45,103 bases of DNA from an uncultured Lachnospiraceae bacterium. GTDB lineage: Bacteria; Bacillota; Clostridia; Lachnospirales; Lachnospiraceae. The first letter of the stretch is position 1; every line of letters begins with the position of its first letter. The stretch spans positions 79,314 through 124,416 of the forward strand of contig CARLBU010000004.1 of assembly GCA_949012915.1 (NCBI GenBank), written 5' to 3'. Under the pieces are notes generated by a model. The model did not search any database, was not told where the DNA came from, and was given only the letters and a program-made list of their open reading frames with translations. A program made the translations under genes and the position numbers. Shown here piece by piece: positions 203-33,752 of this stretch.

Positions 203-235
203 GAAAGGACATAAATAGGAGGGGGGAGGACGCAG

Positions 236-385
236 GCAGGAGAGAGGGATTCTTTGCTGGGGCCGTTTGCACTAAGGCTTCTTCGCAGCGGACACATAAG
301 GTGCTAAAGAACAGCACCTAAGTGCCGGCGGGAAGCAATACCCCTGCAAAGATTCCCTCTCTCCTGCCTGCTGTGTATTCCGACC
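236..385 (+). repeat. Family-1 palindromic repeat, copy A. A ~22-bp outer stem closes a conserved ~90-nt core, followed by a conserved tail CTGYRTATTCCGACC.
   Basis: Outer stem gcaggagagagggattctttgc pairs with gcaaagattccctctctcctgc. The core tggggccgtttgcactaaggc...gtgccggcgggaagcaataccc recurs at 980-1130, 23467-23618 and 23836-23985. The terminal hairpin GGTGCT/AGCACC shows compensatory changes relative to GGCACG/CGTGCC in the other copies. Confidence 0.8.
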
Positions 386-398
386 GGAAAGCTAGAAA

Positions 399-1156: not shown

Positions 1157-2194
1157 TTAAAAGGTTTCTTCTACTTCTATTTGGCGGCAGCTACCTCTTA
1201 TAATAAGAGAATGTGGAACAATAATCTTTGTTGCCAGTAAATTAGGGTTTTCAATATGATTAATAAGCTGTGAAGCTGCTTCAATTCCCAGTTGGTGTGA
1301 ATTAATATCAATAGAAGTTAATTGAGGGGATGTAATCCGTGCAAACAGGGAATTATTAAAGGAAACGATAGAGAGATCCTCTGGGACAGACAAACCGCAC
1401 TGTACACAGATCCGCTTTAGTGCAACAGCTAAAATATCATCACTTGCGACAACGGCAGTAGGGCGATCTTCTCGTTTCAGCAGGGCATGGAAGAGTGGAT
1501 TCTGATCCAGAGAAAGCTGTTCTACTTCGATGCAGTAATCGGGGAAAATCGGTATTTGATGCTCCGAGAGTGCTAATTGATAACCGGCTTTGCGTTCTGC
1601 AGAAAAGAGCATATTATATTCGCTTCCGACATAGGCAATTCGTCTGTGACCTAAGCTGTATAGATATTCGGTGGCTTCTTTTCCTGCTAGAAGGTTGTCA
1701 TTATCGATATAGATGGTTTGGTTGACAAACTGCTTTGCTTTGCCAATTAAGACATAGAGCAGACCCTCATTGTAGAGGTAGTCAATAATGGCATCGTCTT
1801 GTTTGGAATAGAGGATAATATAGCCCCCCATTTGCTCATCTTTTCCTAGTGTTTGAATGGCACGCAGGATTTCTTCTTCGTCTTGTCCCGTTACAATGGT
1901 ACTGATATATTCTCTTCCGTTGCAGAATTGGCTGATTCCTCGGATTGCCTCTAAGTAGAAAGAATTTTCATAGACTTCTCTGGAGGAAGGAGGAAGAATA
2001 ATACTGATTGTCTGGGGAGATTGTCCGGTTTGTGAATTGGCGGAAATATTAGGTTCGTATCCTAATTGTGCCATCGCAAATCGGACTTTTTCTTTTGTTT
2101 CTCTGCTGATCGAAGAGTGATCTTTGCAGGTTCTGGATACAGTGGAGGGAGATACGCCTGCTAATGCAGCAACATCTCGGATTGTAACAGCCAT
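1157..2194 (-). CDS. LacI-family transcriptional regulator (likely maltose regulon repressor)
   Basis: N-terminal HTH MAVTIRDVAALAGVSPSTVSRT followed by a periplasmic-binding-like sugar-binding domain. Reads divergently from the PTS/malQ operon. Confidence 0.85.
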   Translation of the reverse strand: MAVTIRDVAALAGVSPSTVSRTCKDHSSISRETKEKVRFAMAQLGYEPNISANSQTGQSPQTISIILPPSSREVYENSFYLEAIRGISQFCNGREYISTIVTGQDEEEILRAIQTLGKDEQMGGYIILYSKQDDAIIDYLYNEGLLYVLIGKAKQFVNQTIYIDNDNLLAGKEATEYLYSLGHRRIAYVGSEYNMLFSAERKAGYQLALSEHQIPIFPDYCIEVEQLSLDQNPLFHALLKREDRPTAVVASDDILAVALKRICVQCGLSVPEDLSIVSFNNSLFARITSPQLTSIDINSHQLGIEAASQLINHIENPNLLATKIIVPHSLIIRGSCRQIEVEETF

Positions 2195-2418
2195 AATAGA
2201 TGCTCCTTTTTTGATATTTTCTGATTTATTGTAAGCTTGATTGTTTTTTGATTTATTTATAGATTATAAAAAGAAAATGGAAAAAAGTCAATCGTAAGAC
2301 GAGTTTCCTTTTCGTCATTTTTCATAAAATAGTAGGGGGATAATTATGCAATATATAGAAAATACTAAAAAGTTAGAAATTTTTATTGTAATTTTGTAGT
2401 AAATGCGGTACAGTTATG

Positions 2419-2520: not shown

Positions 2521-4791
2521 ATGATGAGTAACACAACAAAAGAAAAGGGCAAAATTTCAATTATTGCACCACTATCTGGAACGATTGTTGCATTGGAAGA
2601 AGTGCCCGATCCAGTGTTTTCGGAGAAAGCATTGGGAGATGGAGCTGCCATTTTGCCGGAGGACGGAAAGATTTATAGTCCTGTCAACGGAACTGTTGCA
2701 TCAATTGCTGCAACAAATCATGCATATGGGTTTCAATCGGAGGACGGGTTAGATGTCCTGGTACATGTCGGACTGGAAACGGTTGGATTAAATGGAGAGG
2801 GATTTACTCTCTATAAGAAAGAGGGGGACCTGGTAAAAGTAGGAGATTTGGTAGCAGAAGCGGATTTAGAATTGATCAAGGGGAAAAATTTGAATTTAAT
2901 TACTCCGGTGCTTTTGTGTGACGGAATGGACGGAAAGCAGATGGATGTGTGTTCCGGTAAAGTACGGGCAGGAAAGGATGCGGTATTGCTGGTAACGGAG
3001 GAAACGGCGGCTACTGTAGAAGAAAAGGAAACAGGTAGGGATGTTGTTTCGACAGAAACAAAGAGTGCAGGGCAAACGGTATCTGAAAAGAAACAGGAGA
3101 CTTCTGCTTCTAAGACGGCTTCTTCGGGGGGTTCGGAGAAGAAGGCGGGAATTAATTTTGATTTTCTGCAGAAATTGGGAAAAGTGCTGATGACGGTTAT
3201 TGCGGTAATGCCGGCAGCAGGACTGATGCTTAGCCTTGGAAAACTGATTCAGATGGGCGGGGCAGAGATTCCTTTTATTTTCACAATCGGCAGTACAATG
3301 GAGAATATCGGATGGGCGATTATTAACAATCTGCATATTTTATTTGCGGCTGCAATCGGCGGTTCTTGGGCAAAAGAACGTGCGGGAGGTGCATTTGCAG
3401 CGATTATTTCATTTATTTTGATTAACTGTATTACAGGAGCTGCTTTTGGTGTGACCAGCGGAATGTTAAATGAGTCTGGAGCAGTGGTTACTTCTCTTTT
3501 TGGACAGGAAATGCTGGTAGAAAATTATTTTACTTCTGTACTGGGGGCACCGGCTTTAAATATGGGAGTATTTGTAGGAATTATTGCCGGATTTGTAGGT
3601 GGTGTTGTCTATAATAAGTTTTATAATTTCCGTAAATTGCCGGATGCGTTATCATTTTTTAATGGGAAACGGTTTGTACCTTTAGCTGTTATTGCTTATT
3701 CTACAGGAATTTCTCTTGTTTTGGCAGTGATATGGCCGATTGTACAGACAGGAATTAATTCGTTTGGTGTATGGATTGCCAATTCTTCTTCCTCTTCTCC
3801 GGTTTTGGCACCGTTTATCTACGGAACGTTAGAGAGGCTTCTGCTGCCTTTTGGTCTGCATCATATGCTGACCATTCCGATGAATTATACTTCTTTCGGA
3901 GGAACTTATCTAATTCAGACCGGAATCAATGCGGGATCGGAAGTATTTGGACAAGATCCGCTTTGGCTGGCATGGGTAACAGATTTAATTAATTTTAAGG
4001 ATGCAGGAAATATTGCTGCTTATGAAAATTTATTGAATACGGTAACACCGGCTCGTTTTAAGGTGGGACAGATGATTGGTTCAACTGGTCTGCTTTTAGG
4101 AGTGGCACTTGCTATGTATCGGCGGGTGGATGAAGATAAGAAAAAGAATTATCGTTCTATGTTTGTTTCAACTGTGTTAGCAGTATTTTTAACCGGTGTA
4201 ACGGAGCCTTTGGAATTTATGTTTATGTTCTGTGCACTGCCGCTTTATATTGTCTATGCTGTACTGCAGGGGTGTGCGTTTGCAATGGCAGGTATTTTCG
4301 ATCTGCGGCTTCATTCTTTTGGAAACTTAGAATTTTTAACTCGTGTTCCAATGTCATTAAAAGCGGGATTAGGCGGGGATATTATTCATTTTATTATCTG
4401 CTGCGTTGCTTTCTTTGCGATTGGATATGTGATTGCTTACTTTATGATTGAAAAGTTTCAATTTGCTACGCCGGGACGTCTGGGAAATTATACAGATGAA
4501 AATGAGGAATCAGGCGGAGAGGCAGCGGCTTCTGATTCTGCGAAAAAGGGCGGACAAAACAGCCAGCCAGAGCGGATTATTGCGTTATTAGGCGGTCGGG
4601 AAAATATTATTTTAGTGGATGCTTGTATGACACGTTTAAGAGTAACGGTAAAGAATCCAGAACAGGTTGCAGATACTGCTGCATGGAAAGCAGAAGGAGC
4701 ACTGGGGTTGGTGAAAAAGGACAATGGAATTCAGGCAATCTATGGACCGAAAGCAGATGTATTAAAATCGGATATCAACGATATTCTTTAA
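2521..4791 (+). CDS. PTS glucose/maltose-family transporter; fused EIIA-EIIC-EIIB
   Basis: The N-terminal ~150 aa is an EIIA-Glc domain (..GDGAAILPEDGKIYSPVNGTV..HVGLETVGLNGEGF..). An ST/K/E-rich linker follows, then a multi-TM EIIC domain. The C-terminal EIIB carries the phospho-Cys motif ACMTRLRV. Confidence 0.85.
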   Translation: MMSNTTKEKGKISIIAPLSGTIVALEEVPDPVFSEKALGDGAAILPEDGKIYSPVNGTVASIAATNHAYGFQSEDGLDVLVHVGLETVGLNGEGFTLYKKEGDLVKVGDLVAEADLELIKGKNLNLITPVLLCDGMDGKQMDVCSGKVRAGKDAVLLVTEETAATVEEKETGRDVVSTETKSAGQTVSEKKQETSASKTASSGGSEKKAGINFDFLQKLGKVLMTVIAVMPAAGLMLSLGKLIQMGGAEIPFIFTIGSTMENIGWAIINNLHILFAAAIGGSWAKERAGGAFAAIISFILINCITGAAFGVTSGMLNESGAVVTSLFGQEMLVENYFTSVLGAPALNMGVFVGIIAGFVGGVVYNKFYNFRKLPDALSFFNGKRFVPLAVIAYSTGISLVLAVIWPIVQTGINSFGVWIANSSSSSPVLAPFIYGTLERLLLPFGLHHMLTIPMNYTSFGGTYLIQTGINAGSEVFGQDPLWLAWVTDLINFKDAGNIAAYENLLNTVTPARFKVGQMIGSTGLLLGVALAMYRRVDEDKKKNYRSMFVSTVLAVFLTGVTEPLEFMFMFCALPLYIVYAVLQGCAFAMAGIFDLRLHSFGNLEFLTRVPMSLKAGLGGDIIHFIICCVAFFAIGYVIAYFMIEKFQFATPGRLGNYTDENEESGGEAAASDSAKKGGQNSQPERIIALLGGRENIILVDACMTRLRVTVKNPEQVADTAAWKAEGALGLVKKDNGIQAIYGPKADVLKSDINDIL

Positions 4792-4846: not shown

Positions 4847-5728
4847 ATGAAGCTGTTGACTTTAAATACACACAGTCTTCAAGAAGAGAATTATCTGCAG
4901 AAGCTCGATTTCTTTCTTTCTGTTATTCAGAAAGAAAAACCCGATTTGATCGCTTTGCAGGAAGTGAATCAGTCTCTGTCAGCACCTTTTGCAGATGCAA
5001 AGCTGCTGCAGGGCTGGGTTCCCTGCCCGGATGCCGTGCCGATTCGTCAGGATAACCATGCTGCACAGGCAGCATTTCGGCTGCATCAGGCGGGAATTCC
5101 CTGTTCTTGGACTTGGATCTCGGCAAAGATAGGATATGATATCTATGATGAGGGAATCGCCGTATTGGCTATTAATCAAAAACTAACCGAGATGGAATCT
5201 TTTTTTATCAGTGGTTGTCAGGACTATAAAAATTGGAAAACACGCCGGGTATTAGGCGTGCGGACAGAGAAGAGTGATCACTGGTTCTATACGGTTCATA
5301 TGGGCTGGTGGGAAGATGAAGAAGAACCTTTTTTGGCACAGTGGAAACGGCTGAATACTCGGCTGCAGCAGAAAGGGGAGGAATCTGTGATCTGGCTGAT
5401 GGGGGACTTTAACAGTCCGGCAGAATTTCGTGGACAGGGTTATGATTGTATCAGTGGGGATGGATGGCTGGATACTTATAATCTGGCAGGGCAAAAGGAC
5501 AGCGGGATTACAGTAGAGGGCTGTATTGATGGATGGAGAGAATTTTCTCAGGAGCAGGACAGACCGGAGGGAATGAGAATGGATGTGATTTGGTGTAATA
5601 AAGAGATGCCGATTTCGTATTCTAAGGTGCTGTTTAATGGAGAAAGAGAACCAAAGGTATCGGATCATTTTGGAGTTTTGATAGAGACAGAGGAAGAAAT
5701 CATGCAAAAGATGAAAGGAGAAAGATAG
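4847..5728 (+). CDS. Endonuclease/exonuclease/phosphatase-family protein, MapP-like (maltose-6'-phosphate phosphatase candidate)
   Basis: EEP catalytic signatures are present: LTLNTHS, ALQEVN, GDFN and SDHFGV. It sits between the PTS gene and malQ, as mapP follows malT in Enterococcus. Confidence 0.6.
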   Translation: MKLLTLNTHSLQEENYLQKLDFFLSVIQKEKPDLIALQEVNQSLSAPFADAKLLQGWVPCPDAVPIRQDNHAAQAAFRLHQAGIPCSWTWISAKIGYDIYDEGIAVLAINQKLTEMESFFISGCQDYKNWKTRRVLGVRTEKSDHWFYTVHMGWWEDEEEPFLAQWKRLNTRLQQKGEESVIWLMGDFNSPAEFRGQGYDCISGDGWLDTYNLAGQKDSGITVEGCIDGWREFSQEQDRPEGMRMDVIWCNKEMPISYSKVLFNGEREPKVSDHFGVLIETEEEIMQKMKGER

Positions 5729-7222
5729 ATGAAACGTTCAGCAGGTATTTTACTTCCCATTACCAGTTTGCCTTCCCGCTATGGGATTGGCTGTTTTTCA
5801 AAGAGTGCATATGATTTTATAGACTGGCTGAAAGAAGCCGGACAGACTTATTGGCAGATTTTGCCGCTTGGACCTACCAGTTATGGAGATTCTCCTTATC
5901 AGTCATTTTCTACTTTTGCAGGAAATCCTTATTTTATTAGTTTGGAGGCACTGATAGAGGAAGGGGTTTTGACAGAGGAGGAGTGTGAAGAGGCGGATTT
6001 TGGAAGTCAGTTAGAAGATATTGATTATGAGAAACTCTATCAAAATCGGTATCCTTTGCTTCGAAAGGCGTATGAACGCAGCAAGGTTAGTGAAAATGCG
6101 GATTATCTGCGGTTTGTAGAGGAAAATAAGTGGTGGCTTTCGGACTATGCGTTGTTTATGGCGGTTAAGGATCGGTTTGAGGGCGTAGCATGGACGCAGT
6201 GGGCAGAGGATATTCGGCTGCGTTGGGGATTTGCGATGGATTATTATCGCAGGGAGTTATATTTTGAGATAGAATTTCAGCAGTATATGCAGTTTAAGTT
6301 TTTTGAACAGTGGAGGCGGTTAAAGGCGTATGCCAATCAGAAGGGGATTGCCTTGATTGGGGATATTCCTATCTATGTGGCAATGGACAGTGCGGATACT
6401 TGGGCACATCCAGAATTGTTCCAGTTAGATGAACAGAATGTACCTTGTGCGGTAGCAGGATGTCCGCCGGATGGGTTTTCGGCAGACGGGCAGCTTTGGG
6501 GGAATCCTTTGTATCGCTGGGAGTATCATAAGCAGACTGGATATGAATGGTGGGTTTCAAGACTGGCTTATTGTTTTCGGCTGTATGATGTTGTGCGGAT
6601 TGATCATTTTCGGGGATTTGATGAGTATTATTCGATTCCTTATGGTGCGGAATCGGCGAAGATTGGGCATTGGGAAAAAGGTCCTGGGATTGAGCTGTTT
6701 CGCTGTGTAGAGCAGCGGCTTGGATGGCATGAGGTAATCGCAGAGGATTTGGGGTATGTTACGGATTCGGTGCGGCAGTTGGTTGCAGACAGTGGATTTC
6801 CGGGAATGAAGGTGTTGGAGTTTGCTTTTGATTCTAGGGATTCTGGATCGGCAAATGACTATCTGCCTCATAATTATATGGAAAATAGTGTGGCTTATAC
6901 AGGGACTCATGATAATGAGACAATCTGCGGGTGGTTTGAGTCGATTTCAAAGGCAGAGCAGCAGATGGCAAGGGAGTATCTTTGTGATCTTTATACGCCG
7001 AAGGAGTTGTTGTATAAGGCGTTTATTGCTTTGGTGATGCGAAGTAATGCAAAGACTTGTATTATTCCAATGCAGGATTATCTTGGGTATGATAATACAT
7101 GTCGGATTAATACGCCTTCTACAGTGGGGACGAACTGGAGGTGGCGTTTGACGGAAGAGGATTTGTCAAAGGAATTGCAGGAAGAGATTTTGGGTATTGC
7201 AAAGCGGTATGGGAGGATTTAA
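5729..7222 (+). CDS. malQ: 4-alpha-glucanotransferase (amylomaltase, GH77)
   Basis: 497 aa with a typical GH77 N-terminus MKRSAGILLPITSLPSRYGIG and conserved regions (..GDIPIYVA.., ..HFRGF..). Its start abuts the stop codon of the upstream gene. Confidence 0.9.
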   Translation: MKRSAGILLPITSLPSRYGIGCFSKSAYDFIDWLKEAGQTYWQILPLGPTSYGDSPYQSFSTFAGNPYFISLEALIEEGVLTEEECEEADFGSQLEDIDYEKLYQNRYPLLRKAYERSKVSENADYLRFVEENKWWLSDYALFMAVKDRFEGVAWTQWAEDIRLRWGFAMDYYRRELYFEIEFQQYMQFKFFEQWRRLKAYANQKGIALIGDIPIYVAMDSADTWAHPELFQLDEQNVPCAVAGCPPDGFSADGQLWGNPLYRWEYHKQTGYEWWVSRLAYCFRLYDVVRIDHFRGFDEYYSIPYGAESAKIGHWEKGPGIELFRCVEQRLGWHEVIAEDLGYVTDSVRQLVADSGFPGMKVLEFAFDSRDSGSANDYLPHNYMENSVAYTGTHDNETICGWFESISKAEQQMAREYLCDLYTPKELLYKAFIALVMRSNAKTCIIPMQDYLGYDNTCRINTPSTVGTNWRWRLTEEDLSKELQEEILGIAKRYGRI

Positions 7223-7250
7223 GAGGGGGAAAGAGGATTTCGGAGGGGAC

Positions 7251-7485
7251 GCCAGAGTGCATTAGGGGTACACGGTTCCGCTCTTCGGAAAGTAAGAGGC
7301 TCTAAGACTTCTGGTGTTGGGTGTATCTAACCGGACGGATCGGGGTGCAATTCGCCCGTACAGCGGGCTAAACACACCCCTTTTTTTGCCATTCGAGAAT
7401 GGCAAAAAATCCTAATGGATCGACAGAAGTCTAAGAGCCTCTAACTTTCCTACGAAGTCACCGTGTACCCCTAATGCACTCTGGC
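7251..7485. repeat. Family-2 repeat, copy 1. A ~185-nt conserved core carrying terminators, flanked by perfect 22-bp inverted arms found only in this copy.
   Basis: The core ccggacggatcggggtgcaattcgcccgtacagcgggctaaacacaccccTTTTTTTgccattcgagaatggcAAAAAAt is also present at 33288-33527. The arms cagagtgcattaggggtacacg and cgtgtacccctaatgcactctg are exact reverse complements. Confidence 0.8.
7352..7410. terminator. Tandem intrinsic terminators inside the family-2 core. The first is GGGGTG..CACCCC followed by T7 on the plus strand; the second is a bidirectional T6-GCCATTC-GAG-GAATGGC-A6 hairpin.
   Basis: A GC-rich stem is followed by a T-run, and a perfect 7-bp hairpin is symmetrically flanked by T6 and A6. 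They lie downstream of malQ. Confidence 0.65.
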
Positions 7486-7681
7486 TGTATTATGGCACAA
7501 TTTATGTTTTGTTTTTACCTTTTGTTGTTTTTTGTTATGAAATTAGATTGATTTTGGGTGTTTGCTGGATATATTTTTTTATTGGTTGGTTTATGATTTT
7601 TTTTTCTTTTCTTTTATTTTATTTATTTATTCCAGTGTTCCGTGTTTGTTATGTGTTTTTTGTTTTTATTTTAACCTCATT

Positions 7682-7828
7682 AAGGAAGTCCCCCGCTTTC
7701 GCCTTGGCGGCTTAGAAGCGGGGGACTTCCTTGTTTCAGTGGGAGTGCAGACTCCCACTGAAAAGTTGCGGTAGCAGCTATGAGGTTATGAGCAAGTAGC
7801 GAAGCAGATTGCGAATATCCGATTTGAC
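7682..7828 (+). repeat. Family-3 repeat, copy 1: an 18-bp GC-rich hairpin (AAGGAAGTCCCCCGCTTC/GAAGCGGGGGACTTCCTT) plus a 46-nt module aggttatgagcaagtagcgaagcRgattgcgaatatccgatttgac
   Basis: The hairpin and module recur at 33648-33752 and 29487-29583 with the same hairpin orientation. In the third copy the module orientation is reversed. Confidence 0.75.
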
Positions 7829-7994
7829 TAAAAGTGTAGAAAAAAGTGTTATTTGGGATGAAAAAGTGGTATAGTAGGATAAGAATAGTTTTGTTTGCAT
7901 TTATAAATTTGCGTTTGCAGAGATAGTAGAGGATAGAAAATTGGGTTTTGATAATGGGTATTATGTTGAAAGGTGTAGAGGGGGAAGTTTGCTG

Positions 7995-12931: not shown

Positions 12932-12960
12932 AGAAAAGGAAGATACTTTATAAAAAATAA

Positions 12961-12995
12961 AAATACAACACTTGTTAGTAAAATGTTGTATTTTT
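12961..12995. other. Left recombinase core-type site: two ~14-bp inverted arms around the 7-bp spacer GTTAGTA
   Basis: aaatacaacacttGTTAGTAaaatgttgtattttt. Its reverse complement is nearly identical to the site at 13748-13784, so the two sites are in inverted orientation. Confidence 0.6.
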
Positions 12996-13015
12996 ATATT
13001 TTTTATATCGGTGTT

Positions 13016-13122: not shown

Positions 13123-13713
13123 TTAGAGTGTAATTTTTAAATACACTTCATCTCTTTCGTCTTGTTCAATACTTAAATATCGCTTGGTAATGCTGTAGGA
13201 GGAGTGATTGTAAAGATCCATTAAAAGGGCTGGAGGGGTTCCCTGTTTCCACGCATGATAACCGAATGTCTTCCTTAGAGAGTGGCAGCTGATATGTTGA
13301 TCCAGTCCAGATGCTTTGGCAGCAGTACAGATAATTCGGTAGGCTTGAGAACGACTGATTGGCTCATTCTTTCCTTTCTGACTTAAGAAGAGATACTGCT
13401 CTTTTTCATAGGGTTTTTCCTGGAAGGAATACGAGAGGTAGTTTTTTAGGGTGGTGCAGATAGAGCGGTTTAATGCAATCGTGCGGGATTTTCCAGTCTT
13501 TTGTTCTATTACTTCTAAATGTTTTTTCATGGTTTTAGTATGGTCATCATAGATATCGTTCCATTTTAATGTGAGAATATCGGAGATTCGCAGTGCTGTA
13601 TTTAGTCCCAATATAATCAGGGTATAGTTTCTTGGCTGAGGTTTTTGCAGCAAATAATAATTTTTAAATTGGTTCAGTGCATCTTTGCTTTTAATAGGCT
13701 GTGTTGTGCTCAT
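13123..13713 (-). CDS. Small tyrosine site-specific recombinase (catalytic domain only, FimB/FimE-sized)
   Basis: 196 aa with catalytic residues in order: R in ..LNTALRISD.., K in ..KTGKSR.., HxxR in ..HSLRKTFG.., H in ..LYNHSS.., and Y in ..ITKRYL... There is no N-terminal core-binding domain. Confidence 0.8.
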   Translation of the reverse strand: MSTTQPIKSKDALNQFKNYYLLQKPQPRNYTLIILGLNTALRISDILTLKWNDIYDDHTKTMKKHLEVIEQKTGKSRTIALNRSICTTLKNYLSYSFQEKPYEKEQYLFLSQKGKNEPISRSQAYRIICTAAKASGLDQHISCHSLRKTFGYHAWKQGTPPALLMDLYNHSSYSITKRYLSIEQDERDEVYLKITL

Positions 13714-13747
13714 GATAGATCCTCCGTTCGTTGAATTTTGCTTTCTT

Positions 13748-13784
13748 AAAAATGCAACATTTTACTAACAAATGTTGCATTTTC
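13748..13784. other. Right recombinase core-type site: aaaatgcaacattt-TACTAAC-aaatgttgcatttt
   Basis: 14-bp inverted arms flank a 7-bp asymmetric spacer. It is the inverted partner of 12961-12995, and the two bracket the recombinase gene. Confidence 0.6.
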
Positions 13785-13826
13785 ATATTGGCACAGAAGA
13801 CATGGAGAAAACAAGGAGGTTTTTAG

Positions 13827-23419: not shown

Positions 23420-23466
23420 AGAAGGGCAAGATGGTTGCATAGGAAGGTAGTTTCGGGGCGGACGTA

Positions 23467-23618
23467 GGTATGGAAAGGGAAATTCCCTGCTGGGGCCGTT
23501 TGCACTAAGGCTTTCTCGCAGCGGACACATAAGGCACGAAAGTACCGTGCCTAAGTGCCGGCGGAAAGCAATACCCCTGCAGAGAATTCCCTTTCCATAC
23601 CTACTGTATATACCGACC
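23467..23618 (+). repeat. Family-1 palindromic repeat, copy C
   Basis: Outer stem ggtatggaaagggaaattccctgc pairs with gcagagaattccctttccatacc. Core is conserved. Tail is tactgtatataccgacc. Confidence 0.8.
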
Positions 23619-23712
23619 TGTTGGCAGATAAATCCTGTTTTGATTTTGTATTCTTAATAAACGGTGAATAGATATAGAGTAGAGATATGCTTATGCTATT
23701 GATTTGATATTA

Positions 23713-23760
23713 AAAAAAACGTTTTAAATTAGAAAATAAAAAAACGTTTTAAATTAGAAA
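23713..23760. repeat. Direct tandem repeat, 2 x ~23 bp (aaaaaacgttttaaattagaaaa)
   Basis: Two adjacent identical units inside the AT-rich segment bounded by family-1 copies C and D. Confidence 0.7.
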
Positions 23761-23835
23761 AGAATATTAAGGCGAATCGTTTAGTTGAAAATATGGATAA
23801 ATTTTATACAGCAGAGATGGTGCAAAATGAATAGG

Positions 23836-23985
23836 AAGGAACAGACAGCTTGTATCGAAGGAGGTTTCTTTGCAGGGGTATTGCTTCCCGCCGGCACTTA
23901 GGCACGGTATTTTCGTGCCTTATGTGTCCGCTGCGAGGAAGCCTTAGTGCAAACGGCCCCAGCAAAGAAACCTCCTTCGATACAG
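23836..23985 (-). repeat. Family-1 palindromic repeat, copy D (inverted relative to C)
   Basis: Outer stem ctgtatcgaaggaggtttctttgc pairs with gcaaagaaacctccttcgatacag, a perfect 24 bp. Core is conserved. The tail faces inward. Confidence 0.8.
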
Positions 23986-24298
23986 GCGTACGGGATAGCT
24001 ATAAATACAATAGGAATAAATATACAAAAAATAGACAGTAAATTTAACCAAACAGGATTTGTAGATTTTTCCTTTTTTGGCACTTATTTTATAAAAATTT
24101 TAGCAGTTTTAAACACTTATAAATCCTGTTAAATTTTATTTTTATGGATTTATTGGTGTTTTTTTCTATATTTTCAAGAAAAAAATGGGTTATTTTATTT
24201 GCTTTTATCAAAAGATGTCAACTTATGACTTGCATTAATTTTTATTTTGGATTATAGTTAGATAAAGTACAGTATATCAATGGAAAGAGAGGACGTTC

Positions 24299-29486: not shown

Positions 29487-29583
29487 AAGGAAGTCCCCCC
29501 GCTGCTTTCTGGCTTAGAAGGGGGACTTCTTTGATAGGGTCAAATCGGATATTCGCAATCCGTTTTGTTACTTGCTCATAACC
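29487..29583. repeat. Family-3 repeat, copy 3: a GC-rich hairpin plus the module in inverted orientation
   Basis: aaggaagtccccccgctgctttctggcttagaagggggacttctttg is followed by gtcaaatcggatattcgcaatccgttttgttacttgctcataacct, which is the reverse complement of the module seen at 7782-7828. It lies downstream of rnfB. Confidence 0.7.
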
Positions 29584-29698
29584 TATACTGAAATCGAATG
29601 GGATATCGGTTCTAAATTTTTTTATACTTAGAATCGGCATCCTATTTTATTTAAAAACCTACTTTGAATCAGATTATTAGTAATAAGGAGAAAAGAAT

Positions 29699-33201: not shown

Positions 33202-33287
33202 GGGACATGTTGAAAGGGAGGGGAGCGGAGAGGAAGTTTTATGTTTTATGGCTGGAATAAAGAGTGGGGTGTGTCAAGACGGACGCT

Positions 33288-33527
33288 AGAGTTGGGAAGC
33301 AATATCTTTCTGTTGTTCCGCTCTACGGAAAGTAAGAAAATCTAAGGCTTCTGCATTTACCTGTATCCAACCGGACGGACCGGGGTGCAATTCGCCCGTA
33401 CAACGGGCTAAACACACCCCTTTTTTTGCCATTCGAGAATGGCAAAAAATCCTAGAGATCGACAGAAGCCTAAGATTTTCTAACTTTCCTCCGAAGTCAC
33501 AACAGAAAGATATTGCTTCCCAACTCT
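33288..33527. repeat. Family-2 repeat, copy 2. Same terminator-bearing core as copy 1, with different, perfectly inverted 29-bp arms.
   Basis: Arms agagttgggaagcaatatctttctgtt and aacagaaagatattgcttcccaactct are exact reverse complements and unrelated to the copy-1 arms. The core is >90% identical to 7275-7465. Confidence 0.8.
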
Positions 33528-33647
33528 GGCTGTTTTCTGCTGCTTGTAATATTTTGTATCTTGCCTGTTCCTCCTGTGCTTTTTGCTGGCAGGGGCAGAG
33601 GCAGTGGGGCATAAAATAGTTGAAACCGCCGAACCTCGGCACAATGG

Positions 33648-33752
33648 TCTGGCGGCTTAGAAGCGGGGACTTCCTTGATGAGGTTATGAGCAAGTAGCGA
33701 AGCGGATTGCGAATATCCGATTTGACTTTCGTATCTTTCCGTATTCGCAATC
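33648..33752 (+). repeat. Family-3 repeat, copy 2 (3' half of the hairpin only, plus the module and a downstream hairpin)
   Basis: tggcggcttagaagcggggacttccttg-atg-aggttatgagcaagtagcgaagcggattgcgaatatccgatttgac, followed by ..tattcgcaatc, which pairs with gattgcgaata. Confidence 0.7.

Follow-up and report, generated by a model that had tools for sequence, protein, structure and literature searches.

The spacer between pnp and the rnf operon of an uncultured Lachnospiraceae bacterium (GenBank assembly GCA_949012915.1, contig CARLBU010000004.1) contains two inverted copies, C and D, of a hairpin-forming repeat that we call family 1, set on either side of an AT-rich segment. We studied this C-D unit within a stretch of 45,103 nt (contig positions 79,314 to 124,416, forward strand; hereafter the window), which also holds a second such pair, A and B. 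Our data suggest that C-D is probably a doublet of a high-copy, structured intergenic repeat, a sibling of the TwoAYGGAY RNA motif (RF01731), and that its AT-rich middle is spacer rather than cargo. A preliminary description of this DNA, made from the sequence alone, had taken the two pairs for a non-autonomous foldback-type element able to capture or lose cargo or, alternatively, for convergent structured RNA genes with a shared regulatory region. The features concerned are given below; the strand listed for each copy is the one that folds better, in line with the Rfam orientation of TwoAYGGAY, and bit scores come from a covariance model built from the four window copies A, B, C and D.

227..387, - strand (GGACG reading on +): copy A, family 1; covariance-model match 188 bits
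976..1136, + strand (GGACG reading on -): copy B, family 1; covariance-model match 193 bits
23459..23620, - strand (better-folding): copy C, family 1; covariance-model match 181 bits on + (GGACG reading)
23621..23831, no strand: C-D interior spacer; 211 nt, 25% G+C, including the diverged C and D tails
23713..23761, no strand: tandem repeat in the C-D interior; period 25 x 2.0, unit AAAAAAACGTTTTAAATTAGAAAAT, 100% identical (Tandem Repeats Finder, TRF)
23832..23992, + strand (better-folding): copy D, family 1; covariance-model match 192 bits on - (GGACG reading)
24085..24298, + strand: conserved rnf upstream block, outside the element; 88% identical to relative L183 and 79% to relative L190

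The earlier statement that C and D are inverted with their tails inward is borne out by the covariance-model placement and by an inverted-repeat search, which returned arms at 23483-23622 and 23830-23969 (140 nt, 86% complementary, separated by 207 nt) and a matching pair at 228-381 and 982-1135. Read on the + strand, C runs from CGGACG through the 5′ arm, core and 3′ arm to CTGT and the tail, with its hairpin at ~23464-23604; the GGACG...CTGT reading of D lies on the - strand, where its head is CGTACG at 23992-23987. With the ends of the copies set by the covariance model, the C-D unit is 534 bp long and the A-B unit 910 bp, not far from the ~520 and ~900 bp first reported. The C-D interior, described as 220 bp, AT-rich and devoid of open reading frames (ORFs), is the 211-nt segment listed above and has no ORF of at least 35 aa among those called mechanically. 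Its tandem duplication is perfect, as claimed, though the period is 25 and not 23, the reported 23-mer being the repeated core. The flanks were identified by Pfam as pnp, whose stop codon lies 40 nt before the start of C, and rnfC, and A-B brackets a GNAT acetyltransferase gene (150 aa, 399-851, - strand, Pfam Acetyltransf domains), so that the contrast between a gene-carrying A/B unit and an empty C/D unit also holds. A 16-mer from the core is present four times in the window, where chance would give 0.22. On the right, the variable segment between pnp and rnfC is bounded by the rnf upstream block (24085-24298), which judging by inspection likely carries a promoter, TTGCAT-17-TATAGT.

Structure of family 1 and its kinship with TwoAYGGAY

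Each family-1 copy forms a rod-like hairpin of ~150 nt, long, imperfect and unbranched, with one apical hairpin. In an alignment of 44 sequences, the core of ~95 nt, asymmetric and with fixed bulges and internal loops, is 92-100% identical among copies, and it is nearly unchanged across species too; the 25-bp basal arms average 54% identity among copies versus 92% for the core. The core is a single rod, AGCGGACACRTAAG-hairpin-CTAAGTGCCG. Conservation at the termini is limited to GGACG and CTGT: CGGACG starts the stem and CTGT ends it (ACAG...CGUCC on the other strand), with a looser 5′ leader before the stem (gGTTGTGATC or a G-rich run) and a 3′ tail after it, CTGTnTaTTCCaaCCGGAACgtTTATTTT.

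The variable arms are held together by pairing. Over the 44 copies there are 54 consensus pairs and 97.8% of stem cells are paired, with compensatory changes in 32 of the 54 pairs (413 cells changed on both sides versus 5 on one side); none of 500 shuffled controls did as well, and the pairing signal was lost when partners were slid. A broader alignment of 45 diverse representatives retained 51-53 consensus pairs, 41-42 of them with at least two pair types. The stem arms of the two partners in a pair differ from each other. Between conspecific strains the arms diverge at roughly the same rate as the spacer, and we therefore reject hypermutation of the stem and regard it as old, diverged and kept paired.

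The window also contains two copies of TwoAYGGAY.

7248..7484, - strand: TwoAYGGAY RNA (RF01731) copy; cmscan match 7280-7457 (-), 66.7 bits, E = 6e-11
33282..33527, - strand: second TwoAYGGAY-type copy, by alignment to the 7248-7484 copy; without a separate Rfam match

The first has a GGACG head, a variable complementary basal stem, a CTAAG/CTAAG internal loop and a CTGT tail; the second shares its core and has a basal stem that is wholly different and fully complementary, and further copies occur in loci L016 and L002. The symmetric CTAAG/CTAAG loop (CUUAG/CUUAG on the Rfam strand) is present in both families. The RF01731 match strand (-) is the reverse complement of the GGACG reading, in agreement with the strand that family 1 was assigned independently. 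Shared ends, a common type of stem and the same loop, set around a different core, show that family 1 is a sibling payload on a chassis shared with TwoAYGGAY. Family 1 also shares the behaviour of that motif, being multi-copy and forming divergent doublets in every close pair seen, and from chassis and behaviour together we read C-D as a divergent doublet of a TwoAYGGAY sibling.

A 2010 listing (Weinberg et al. 2010, PMC2864571) gave TwoAYGGAY as a probable RNA from the human gut, gamma-Proteobacteria and Clostridiales. In Pseudomonas it is present at 11-202 copies per genome, 68.4% of its doublets are divergent (median gap 249 bp) and short repeat arrays lie 5′ of it; the basal stem is elongated in Bacillota, and the mechanism behind the doublets was left unexplained (bioRxiv 10.64898/2026.09.22.753630, 24 September 2026). 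Family 1 resembles this motif as a multi-copy, structured intergenic element of human-gut Clostridiales, with doublets that diverge on the Rfam strand, lie a few hundred bp apart and have short repeats in their flanks, and, in the window and related metagenome-assembled genomes (MAGs), with GGACG/CTGT ends, a hypervariable complementary stem and the CTAAG/CTAAG loop. It differs in its single rod with one apical hairpin, where TwoAYGGAY has two hairpins on the basal stem, and in pair orientation, which is uniform for all pairs seen in our sample as against the 68% reported for TwoAYGGAY; set against TwoAYGGAY doublets, family-1 interiors range from 64 to 1039 nt, and some hold genes.

Family 1 itself gave no Rfam match in four scans at gathering and permissive thresholds. 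These scans were sensitive to filtering and inconsistent with one another: true TwoAYGGAY copies were missed by the whole-window gathering scan and by scans of 271 nt and 63 kb, and a 701-nt scan recovered a TwoAYGGAY copy well above the gathering score (43 bits for RF01731, which the 7280-7457 copy exceeds at 66.7 bits while no C/D match was returned). The Rfam negatives for family 1 are therefore soft. Family 1 is a new member of a kind already represented by TwoAYGGAY.

A third small repeat was seen near some of these copies. It consists of a G+C-rich hairpin, GGAAGTCCCCCGC...GCGGGGGACTTCC, with CTTAG, beside a block of 46-50 nt that is 91-98% identical among copies, and lies in the window at 7665-7829, ~33600-33727 and 29500-29584 (inverted), as well as in loci L003, L042, L178 and L179; in two cases a TwoAYGGAY copy has it on its tail side, at a distance of 200-320 nt.

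Copy number, pairing and the pnp-rnfC spacer

When species-representative genomes were scanned with an 18-mer taken from the core, 48 loci were recovered, ~42 of them in the related mouse-gut Lachnospiraceae MAG MGBC128194, which has over 40 copies and where many loci terminate inside a copy. The covariance model finds 44 full-length copies and ~15 cut at contig ends, again mostly in MGBC128194; the MAG loci are 8-kb blocks with many copies at contig ends. In metagenomes, the best-conserved core segment, AGCGGRCACRTAAG-N15-19-CTAAGTGCCG, was found on at least 120 contigs, mostly from the human gut, some of which may be chimeric at repeats (for example L125, L171 and L176). The fetched elements fall into 26 sequence clusters, most from human-gut metagenome contigs, with one plan common to all. 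From a GGACG foot it proceeds through a long variable stem, a 5′ internal loop of the CGCTnnnCGCT type and an inner variable stem to a conserved centre, with GGCTG at the 3′ foot. The core had no match in IMG/VR, PLSDB or INPHARED, and an origin from phages or plasmids was rejected on that basis. On one human-gut contig (L070, 1106-1399), a T-box leader match of 61.5 bits (gathering score 93) lies ~100 nt upstream of a family-1-type element.

Copies are intergenic, usually 12-175 nt after the stop codon of a gene, and about half of them are solitary. Among solitary copies in the window and the MAG, 12 have the GGACG reading behind a gene on the same strand, with co-oriented flanking genes, and 2 are reversed; the metagenome set has a similar orientation bias. 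The paired copies follow a strict rule. All 12 close family-1 pairs in the window and MGBC128194 are arranged tails-inward, as are the divergent-subfamily pair of L190-L192, the metagenome locus represented by L065, L100, L124 and L143, the metagenome pair in L149 and a mixed pair in L002; taking 0.25 per configuration, agreement of 15 pairs by chance has p near 1e-9. The mixed doublet (L002, 1206-2491) joins a TwoAYGGAY copy (1206-1454) and a family-1 copy (2331-2491) around a 171-aa ORF (1711-2277, - strand).

What lies between the partners is different each time. The 12 doublets have 12 different interiors (64-1039 nt, median 164), mutually unrelated and mostly AT-rich, and no unit of ends plus interior was found at more than one locus. 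Genes occur in three interiors (GNAT, metallophosphoesterase and a Cys/Gly-rich ORF), and where a gene is enclosed the tail of the downstream copy is 12-66 nt from its stop codon. Of 43 tail-side flanks, 24 contain short tandem repeats, versus 12 of 43 on the head side, and some of the repeats are built of the tail motif: the L026 interior (5352-5766) has a 42-nt unit repeated ~4.4 times or more that contains the tail motif TTTCAGCCGAAACGTTGTTTTG, and 20-nt repeats in L042 match the tail of the partner copy. Head motifs stutter too, with five in tandem (CGGACGCATGAAGAAGACCGAC) right after the pnp stop codon in L187 (5600-5736; a relative with 95% identical PNPase), where the contig then ends, and others in L034 and L039. 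Read by eye, the C-D 25-mer (..AAACGTTTTAAATT..) resembles GAACGTTTATTT of the tail and the family tail motif (..GAACGTTTATTTT..), and the "empty cargo" of C-D looks like flank material.

The pnp-rnfC spacer was compared among relatives. Conspecific assemblies have an identical PNPase protein and DNA ~99% identical to the window, and C-D is present in the same orientation in every one that spans the region; differences amount to a few single-nucleotide polymorphisms, one 25-mer unit (a single copy in L169) and a swapped apical block in C. In L183, which has the same synteny and 87% nucleotide identity in pnp and rnfC, the spacer is 425 nt versus 880 and element-free, and alignment to the window resumes only in the conserved rnf upstream block. 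L190-L192 (85-86% identical) have in the same spacer a doublet of a divergent subfamily, at 2125-2299 (+) and 3061-3235 (-), which brackets a 178-aa GNAT gene unrelated to that of the window; orthology of C/D with this doublet was rejected, the arms not being specifically similar. L187 and L188 carry a copy or head repeats directly after pnp, where their contigs end. The comparison of relatives proposed in the preliminary description thus finds the whole unit present in conspecifics, wholly absent from L183 and represented by a different pair in L190, and among the assemblies compared neither C nor D stood alone at the locus; lone copies had been named as the outcome that would contradict a unit. 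Between relatives the doublet is gained, lost or replaced as a block. There was no sign of the unit moving between loci, and the borders of the doublet are not clean.

The swapped apical block comprises 7 substitutions in 19 nt (GGCACG..CGTGCC to GGTGCT..AGCACC) between strains otherwise ~98-99% identical. Because the alternative hairpin is found in other copies of the family, we attribute the swap to gene conversion. Partner copies also have core variants in common more often than expected (p = 0.03), one such variant being confined to the L042 pair, and gene conversion homogenises the cores among copies. An interpretation of the apical variants as flip/flop inversions was rejected on sequence inspection.

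Folding strand, mobility and competing explanations

The folding strand was assigned from folding-energy asymmetry and the broad alignment. Of 140 distinct elements, 122 fold to a lower energy as the reverse complement of the GGACG reading, and the same is true of 21 of 26 clusters; the mean difference is 4.5 kcal/mol. The reverse complement also gains conserved U.G pairs, and in the broad alignment its consensus energy was -110.4 versus -104.3, with 136 versus 83 G.U pairs. Counts of G.U versus A.C in the variable stem (4-6 versus 14) were too few to decide the strand on their own, and a call from them was rejected. On the better-folding strand the two copies of a pair point outward, and the pair is therefore divergent. 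The alternative of paired structured RNA genes with a shared regulatory region thus comes closer in form, although on that strand the copies are divergent rather than convergent, and no positioned sigma-70 promoter was found. Near D, strong promoter-like sites are confined to the - strand (24221-24192 and 24280-24251) and are aimed at D in its GGACG reading, so that transcription divergent from rnf is possible; both sigma-70-like sites (24192-24280) match at 11 of 12 positions and lie within the conserved rnf upstream block. No + strand promoter-like site was found in the C-D interior. The preliminary description had raised the prospect of terminators on the inward-facing ends of the copies, and a terminator scan did not detect any at the end of either C or D. 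In the mouse-gut subfamily the tail is moderately T-rich, and in other subfamilies no U tract follows the stem.

No mobilising enzyme turned up in searches around the copies. The 250 neighbouring ORFs form 145 unrelated clusters, ten of which were scanned with Pfam and proved housekeeping or otherwise unrelated, and a recurrent neighbour gene was accordingly rejected. No parent insertion sequence (IS) with matching ends adjoins any copy in the ~1.3 Mb of fetched loci, no integrase was present among the neighbours sampled, and tblastn with IS608 TnpA and E. coli RAYT queries returned one IS200-like match, 5.8 kb from an element. Homologues of the window GNAT, ~80% identical, occur across Lachnospiraceae in contexts beside cstA and rpoB and near tuf; no element copies lay beside them in the two longer contexts examined, and with such homologues living elsewhere without the element, mobility of the A-GNAT-B unit was rejected. 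Of the homologues P0241-P0360, many are known only from contigs of 0.5-1.5 kb, as would be expected of a gene between assembly-breaking repeats. The foldback proposal for the two pairs is thus upheld in part: the unit is non-random and present or absent as a block, while transposition and cargo find no support, given unique interiors, differing partner stems, no target duplication or transposase and a GNAT that occurs elsewhere without the element. The window also has a separate 43-nt inverted pair (12954-12996 and 13747-13789, 88% complementary) around a 196-aa ORF (13123-13713, - strand), each arm of which is a small AT-rich hairpin, perhaps a terminator.

If C-D is a doublet of a TwoAYGGAY sibling, its copies would spread as a non-autonomous mobile repeat served in trans by some factor, and the stem would stay paired because the element works in a folded, single-stranded form. 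The AT-rich interior would then be spacer together with slipped flank repeats, and genes inside other doublets would be bracketed DNA and not the passengers of a transposon.

Several observations weigh against this interpretation. RF01731, searched at E up to 10, had no match in the C/D region or in the 20 family-1-type metagenome loci and 8 MAG loci scanned, and the two hairpins on the basal stem that characterise RF01731 are replaced in family 1 by a single apical one. At the place of the doublet, L183 has ~95-150 unrelated bases and no clean empty site, and doublets may have originated by independent insertions into a hot spot. In flanks of the copies, the longest shared word averaged 6.18 nt, no more than in mismatched controls (5.92 nt), so that no target-site duplication longer than 2-5 bp was apparent, and no transposase or recombinase recurs next to copies in the ~1.3 Mb of fetched loci. 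For an RNA made from the better-folding strand, it is unfavourable that this strand is antisense to the flanking genes for most solitary copies and that a positioned promoter is absent: sigma-70 sites upstream were found for 7 of 43 copies, with no positional peak and at the level of the control strand. Wobble pairs are also scarce in the variable stem (the 5 one-sided versus 413 two-sided cells), which is unusual for selection at the RNA level and may point to a DNA stage or to correction of one arm by the other in hairpin DNA. With no positioned sigma-70 promoter found, we hold RNA and single-stranded DNA (ssDNA) to be about equally probable as the folded strand.

The choice between RNA and DNA is where the doublet interpretation overlaps with its closest competitor, a structure-specific ssDNA site of the REP/RAYT or attC kind, at which a nuclease or recombinase would read the hairpin, the GGAC foot and the extrahelical bases, and pairs would mark exchange of DNA. 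Almost purely Watson-Crick compensation with very few wobbles, a foot tetranucleotide that both core families conserve, bulges fixed on one strand, stutter repeats of head and tail motifs at the borders and the lack of a detected promoter all speak for such a site, as does a better-folding strand antisense to the upstream gene, like attC bottom strands. Yet no Y1/HUH or tyrosine recombinase gene is associated with the copies (the lone IS200-like match being 5.8 kb away), attC R boxes are missing, pairs are inverted and not in direct arrays, 150 nt is far above REP size and the sibling family is curated as RNA in Rfam; we see the ssDNA site as a lesser, though real, possibility. Somewhat further down we place a composite foldback transposon, in which the inverted copies are the ends of a non-autonomous unit that gains and loses cargo. 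The strict orientation of pairs would fit it, as would the absence of the entire unit from L183, the unlike pair that L190 has around a GNAT in this spacer, the GNAT, metallophosphoesterase and Cys/Gly-rich ORF bracketed by other pairs and the failure to see C or D alone. What makes it unlikely is that no interior is common to two pairs, that the outermost 25 bp are the most variable part (the opposite of transposase-bound ends), that neither a target duplication nor, in ~1.3 Mb of fetched loci, a transposase in or near any copy was found, that about half of the copies are solitary and that homologues of the window GNAT occur elsewhere without the element.

Two explanations of a more local kind fare worse. 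Copies could be ordinary bidirectional terminators or 3′-end stabilisers, repeated by happenstance, in keeping with their positions 12-175 nt past stop codons, the 12-66 nt between the tail of the downstream copy and the stop codon of an enclosed gene and the moderately T-rich tail of the mouse-gut subfamily. The G+C-rich hairpin and U tract of an intrinsic terminator are, however, lacking at C and D, where the terminator scan found none, and the stem is not followed by a U tract in other subfamilies; a terminator has no need for a 95-nt asymmetric core that is invariant across species, nor for GGACG/CTGT ends, and L190 has small terminator hairpins of its own between copy and gene, where the large hairpin seems not to be what ends pnp transcription. 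We consider this explanation quite improbable. The L190 hairpins number two, both terminator-like, and lie at 2300-2440 between the first copy and the GNAT (GGAAAAAATTTTTCC and GGGCGAG..CTCGTCC then TTTATTTTT). An invertible promoter switch, with recombination between the inverted copies flipping the interior to control the rnf operon, has in its favour the ~95 nt of near-identical core that the copies share around an AT-rich segment upstream of an operon, and the exchange of sequence between partner cores. Invertons feature both orientations of the interior, but here the interior, like the A-B GNAT, has a single orientation in all spanning conspecific assemblies; the block with the likely rnf promoter sits outside the pair and is retained in a relative without the pair, the interior has no + strand promoter-like site and some interiors measure merely 64-96 nt, which together leave the switch very hard to credit.

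Comparison with other repeats and significance

Other dispersed repeats share some traits with family 1. Like REP, BIME and REPIN sequences, its copies are dispersed extragenic palindromes with a conserved short foot motif, often just after genes, and with frequent inverted pairs and an excess of doublets. REPs are 20-40 nt with a conserved stem, whereas family 1 is ~150 nt with a structured core, though its GGAC foot is conserved; REPIN and BIME spacers are conserved, whereas family-1 interiors (64-1039 nt) are all different and give no indication of replication as a unit. As to the RAYT gene that would accompany such repeats, tblastn produced the single IS200-like match 5.8 kb from an element. 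Hairpin MITEs (miniature inverted-repeat transposable elements; Correia, ERIC, bcr1) are likewise high-copy and intergenic, at 100-250 bp with the whole element a long hairpin, but they have conserved termini and target duplications, in contrast to the variable terminal arms (54%) and invariant centre (92%) of family 1, for which no duplication was found. Integron attC sites are similar in keeping structure over stem sequence, in having one folding strand with fixed extrahelical bases and in a position directly downstream of a gene to which the folding strand is antisense. They differ in their R′′/R′ boxes (RYYYAAC / GTTRRRY), direct arrays and integrase, where family 1 has GGACG/CTGT ends and inverted or solitary copies, and in a variable centre where that of family 1 is conserved.

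TwoAYGGAY has been an orphan motif since 2010, and the preprint of September 2026 shows its mobile-element-like behaviour without explaining how it arises. Family 1 adds a second, unrelated core that follows these rules in the same genomes, which points to machinery that recognises the shared foot, stem and UUA/UUA loop rather than the AYGGAY loops. More speculatively, and with the odds against it in our estimation, family 1 and TwoAYGGAY could be two payloads of one widespread hairpin chassis, made up of a GGACG/CTGT foot, a perfect stem at liberty to vary and a CTAAG/CTAAG loop and copied by some machinery through gut Clostridia and Pseudomonadota, whose divergent doublets bracket new DNA, including lone genes such as GNATs, in intergenic spacers; if true, this would be a new mobile or gene-bracketing system with ends defined by structure instead of sequence. 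On the practical side, these repeats break short-read assemblies, with many contigs stopping inside a copy, and several of our Rfam searches missed them. Close relatives hold the pnp-rnfC spacer in three states (empty, doublet with spacer, and doublet with gene), and this three-state locus, together with gene conversion, makes both the spreading mechanism and the choice between RNA and DNA testable in gut Lachnospiraceae.

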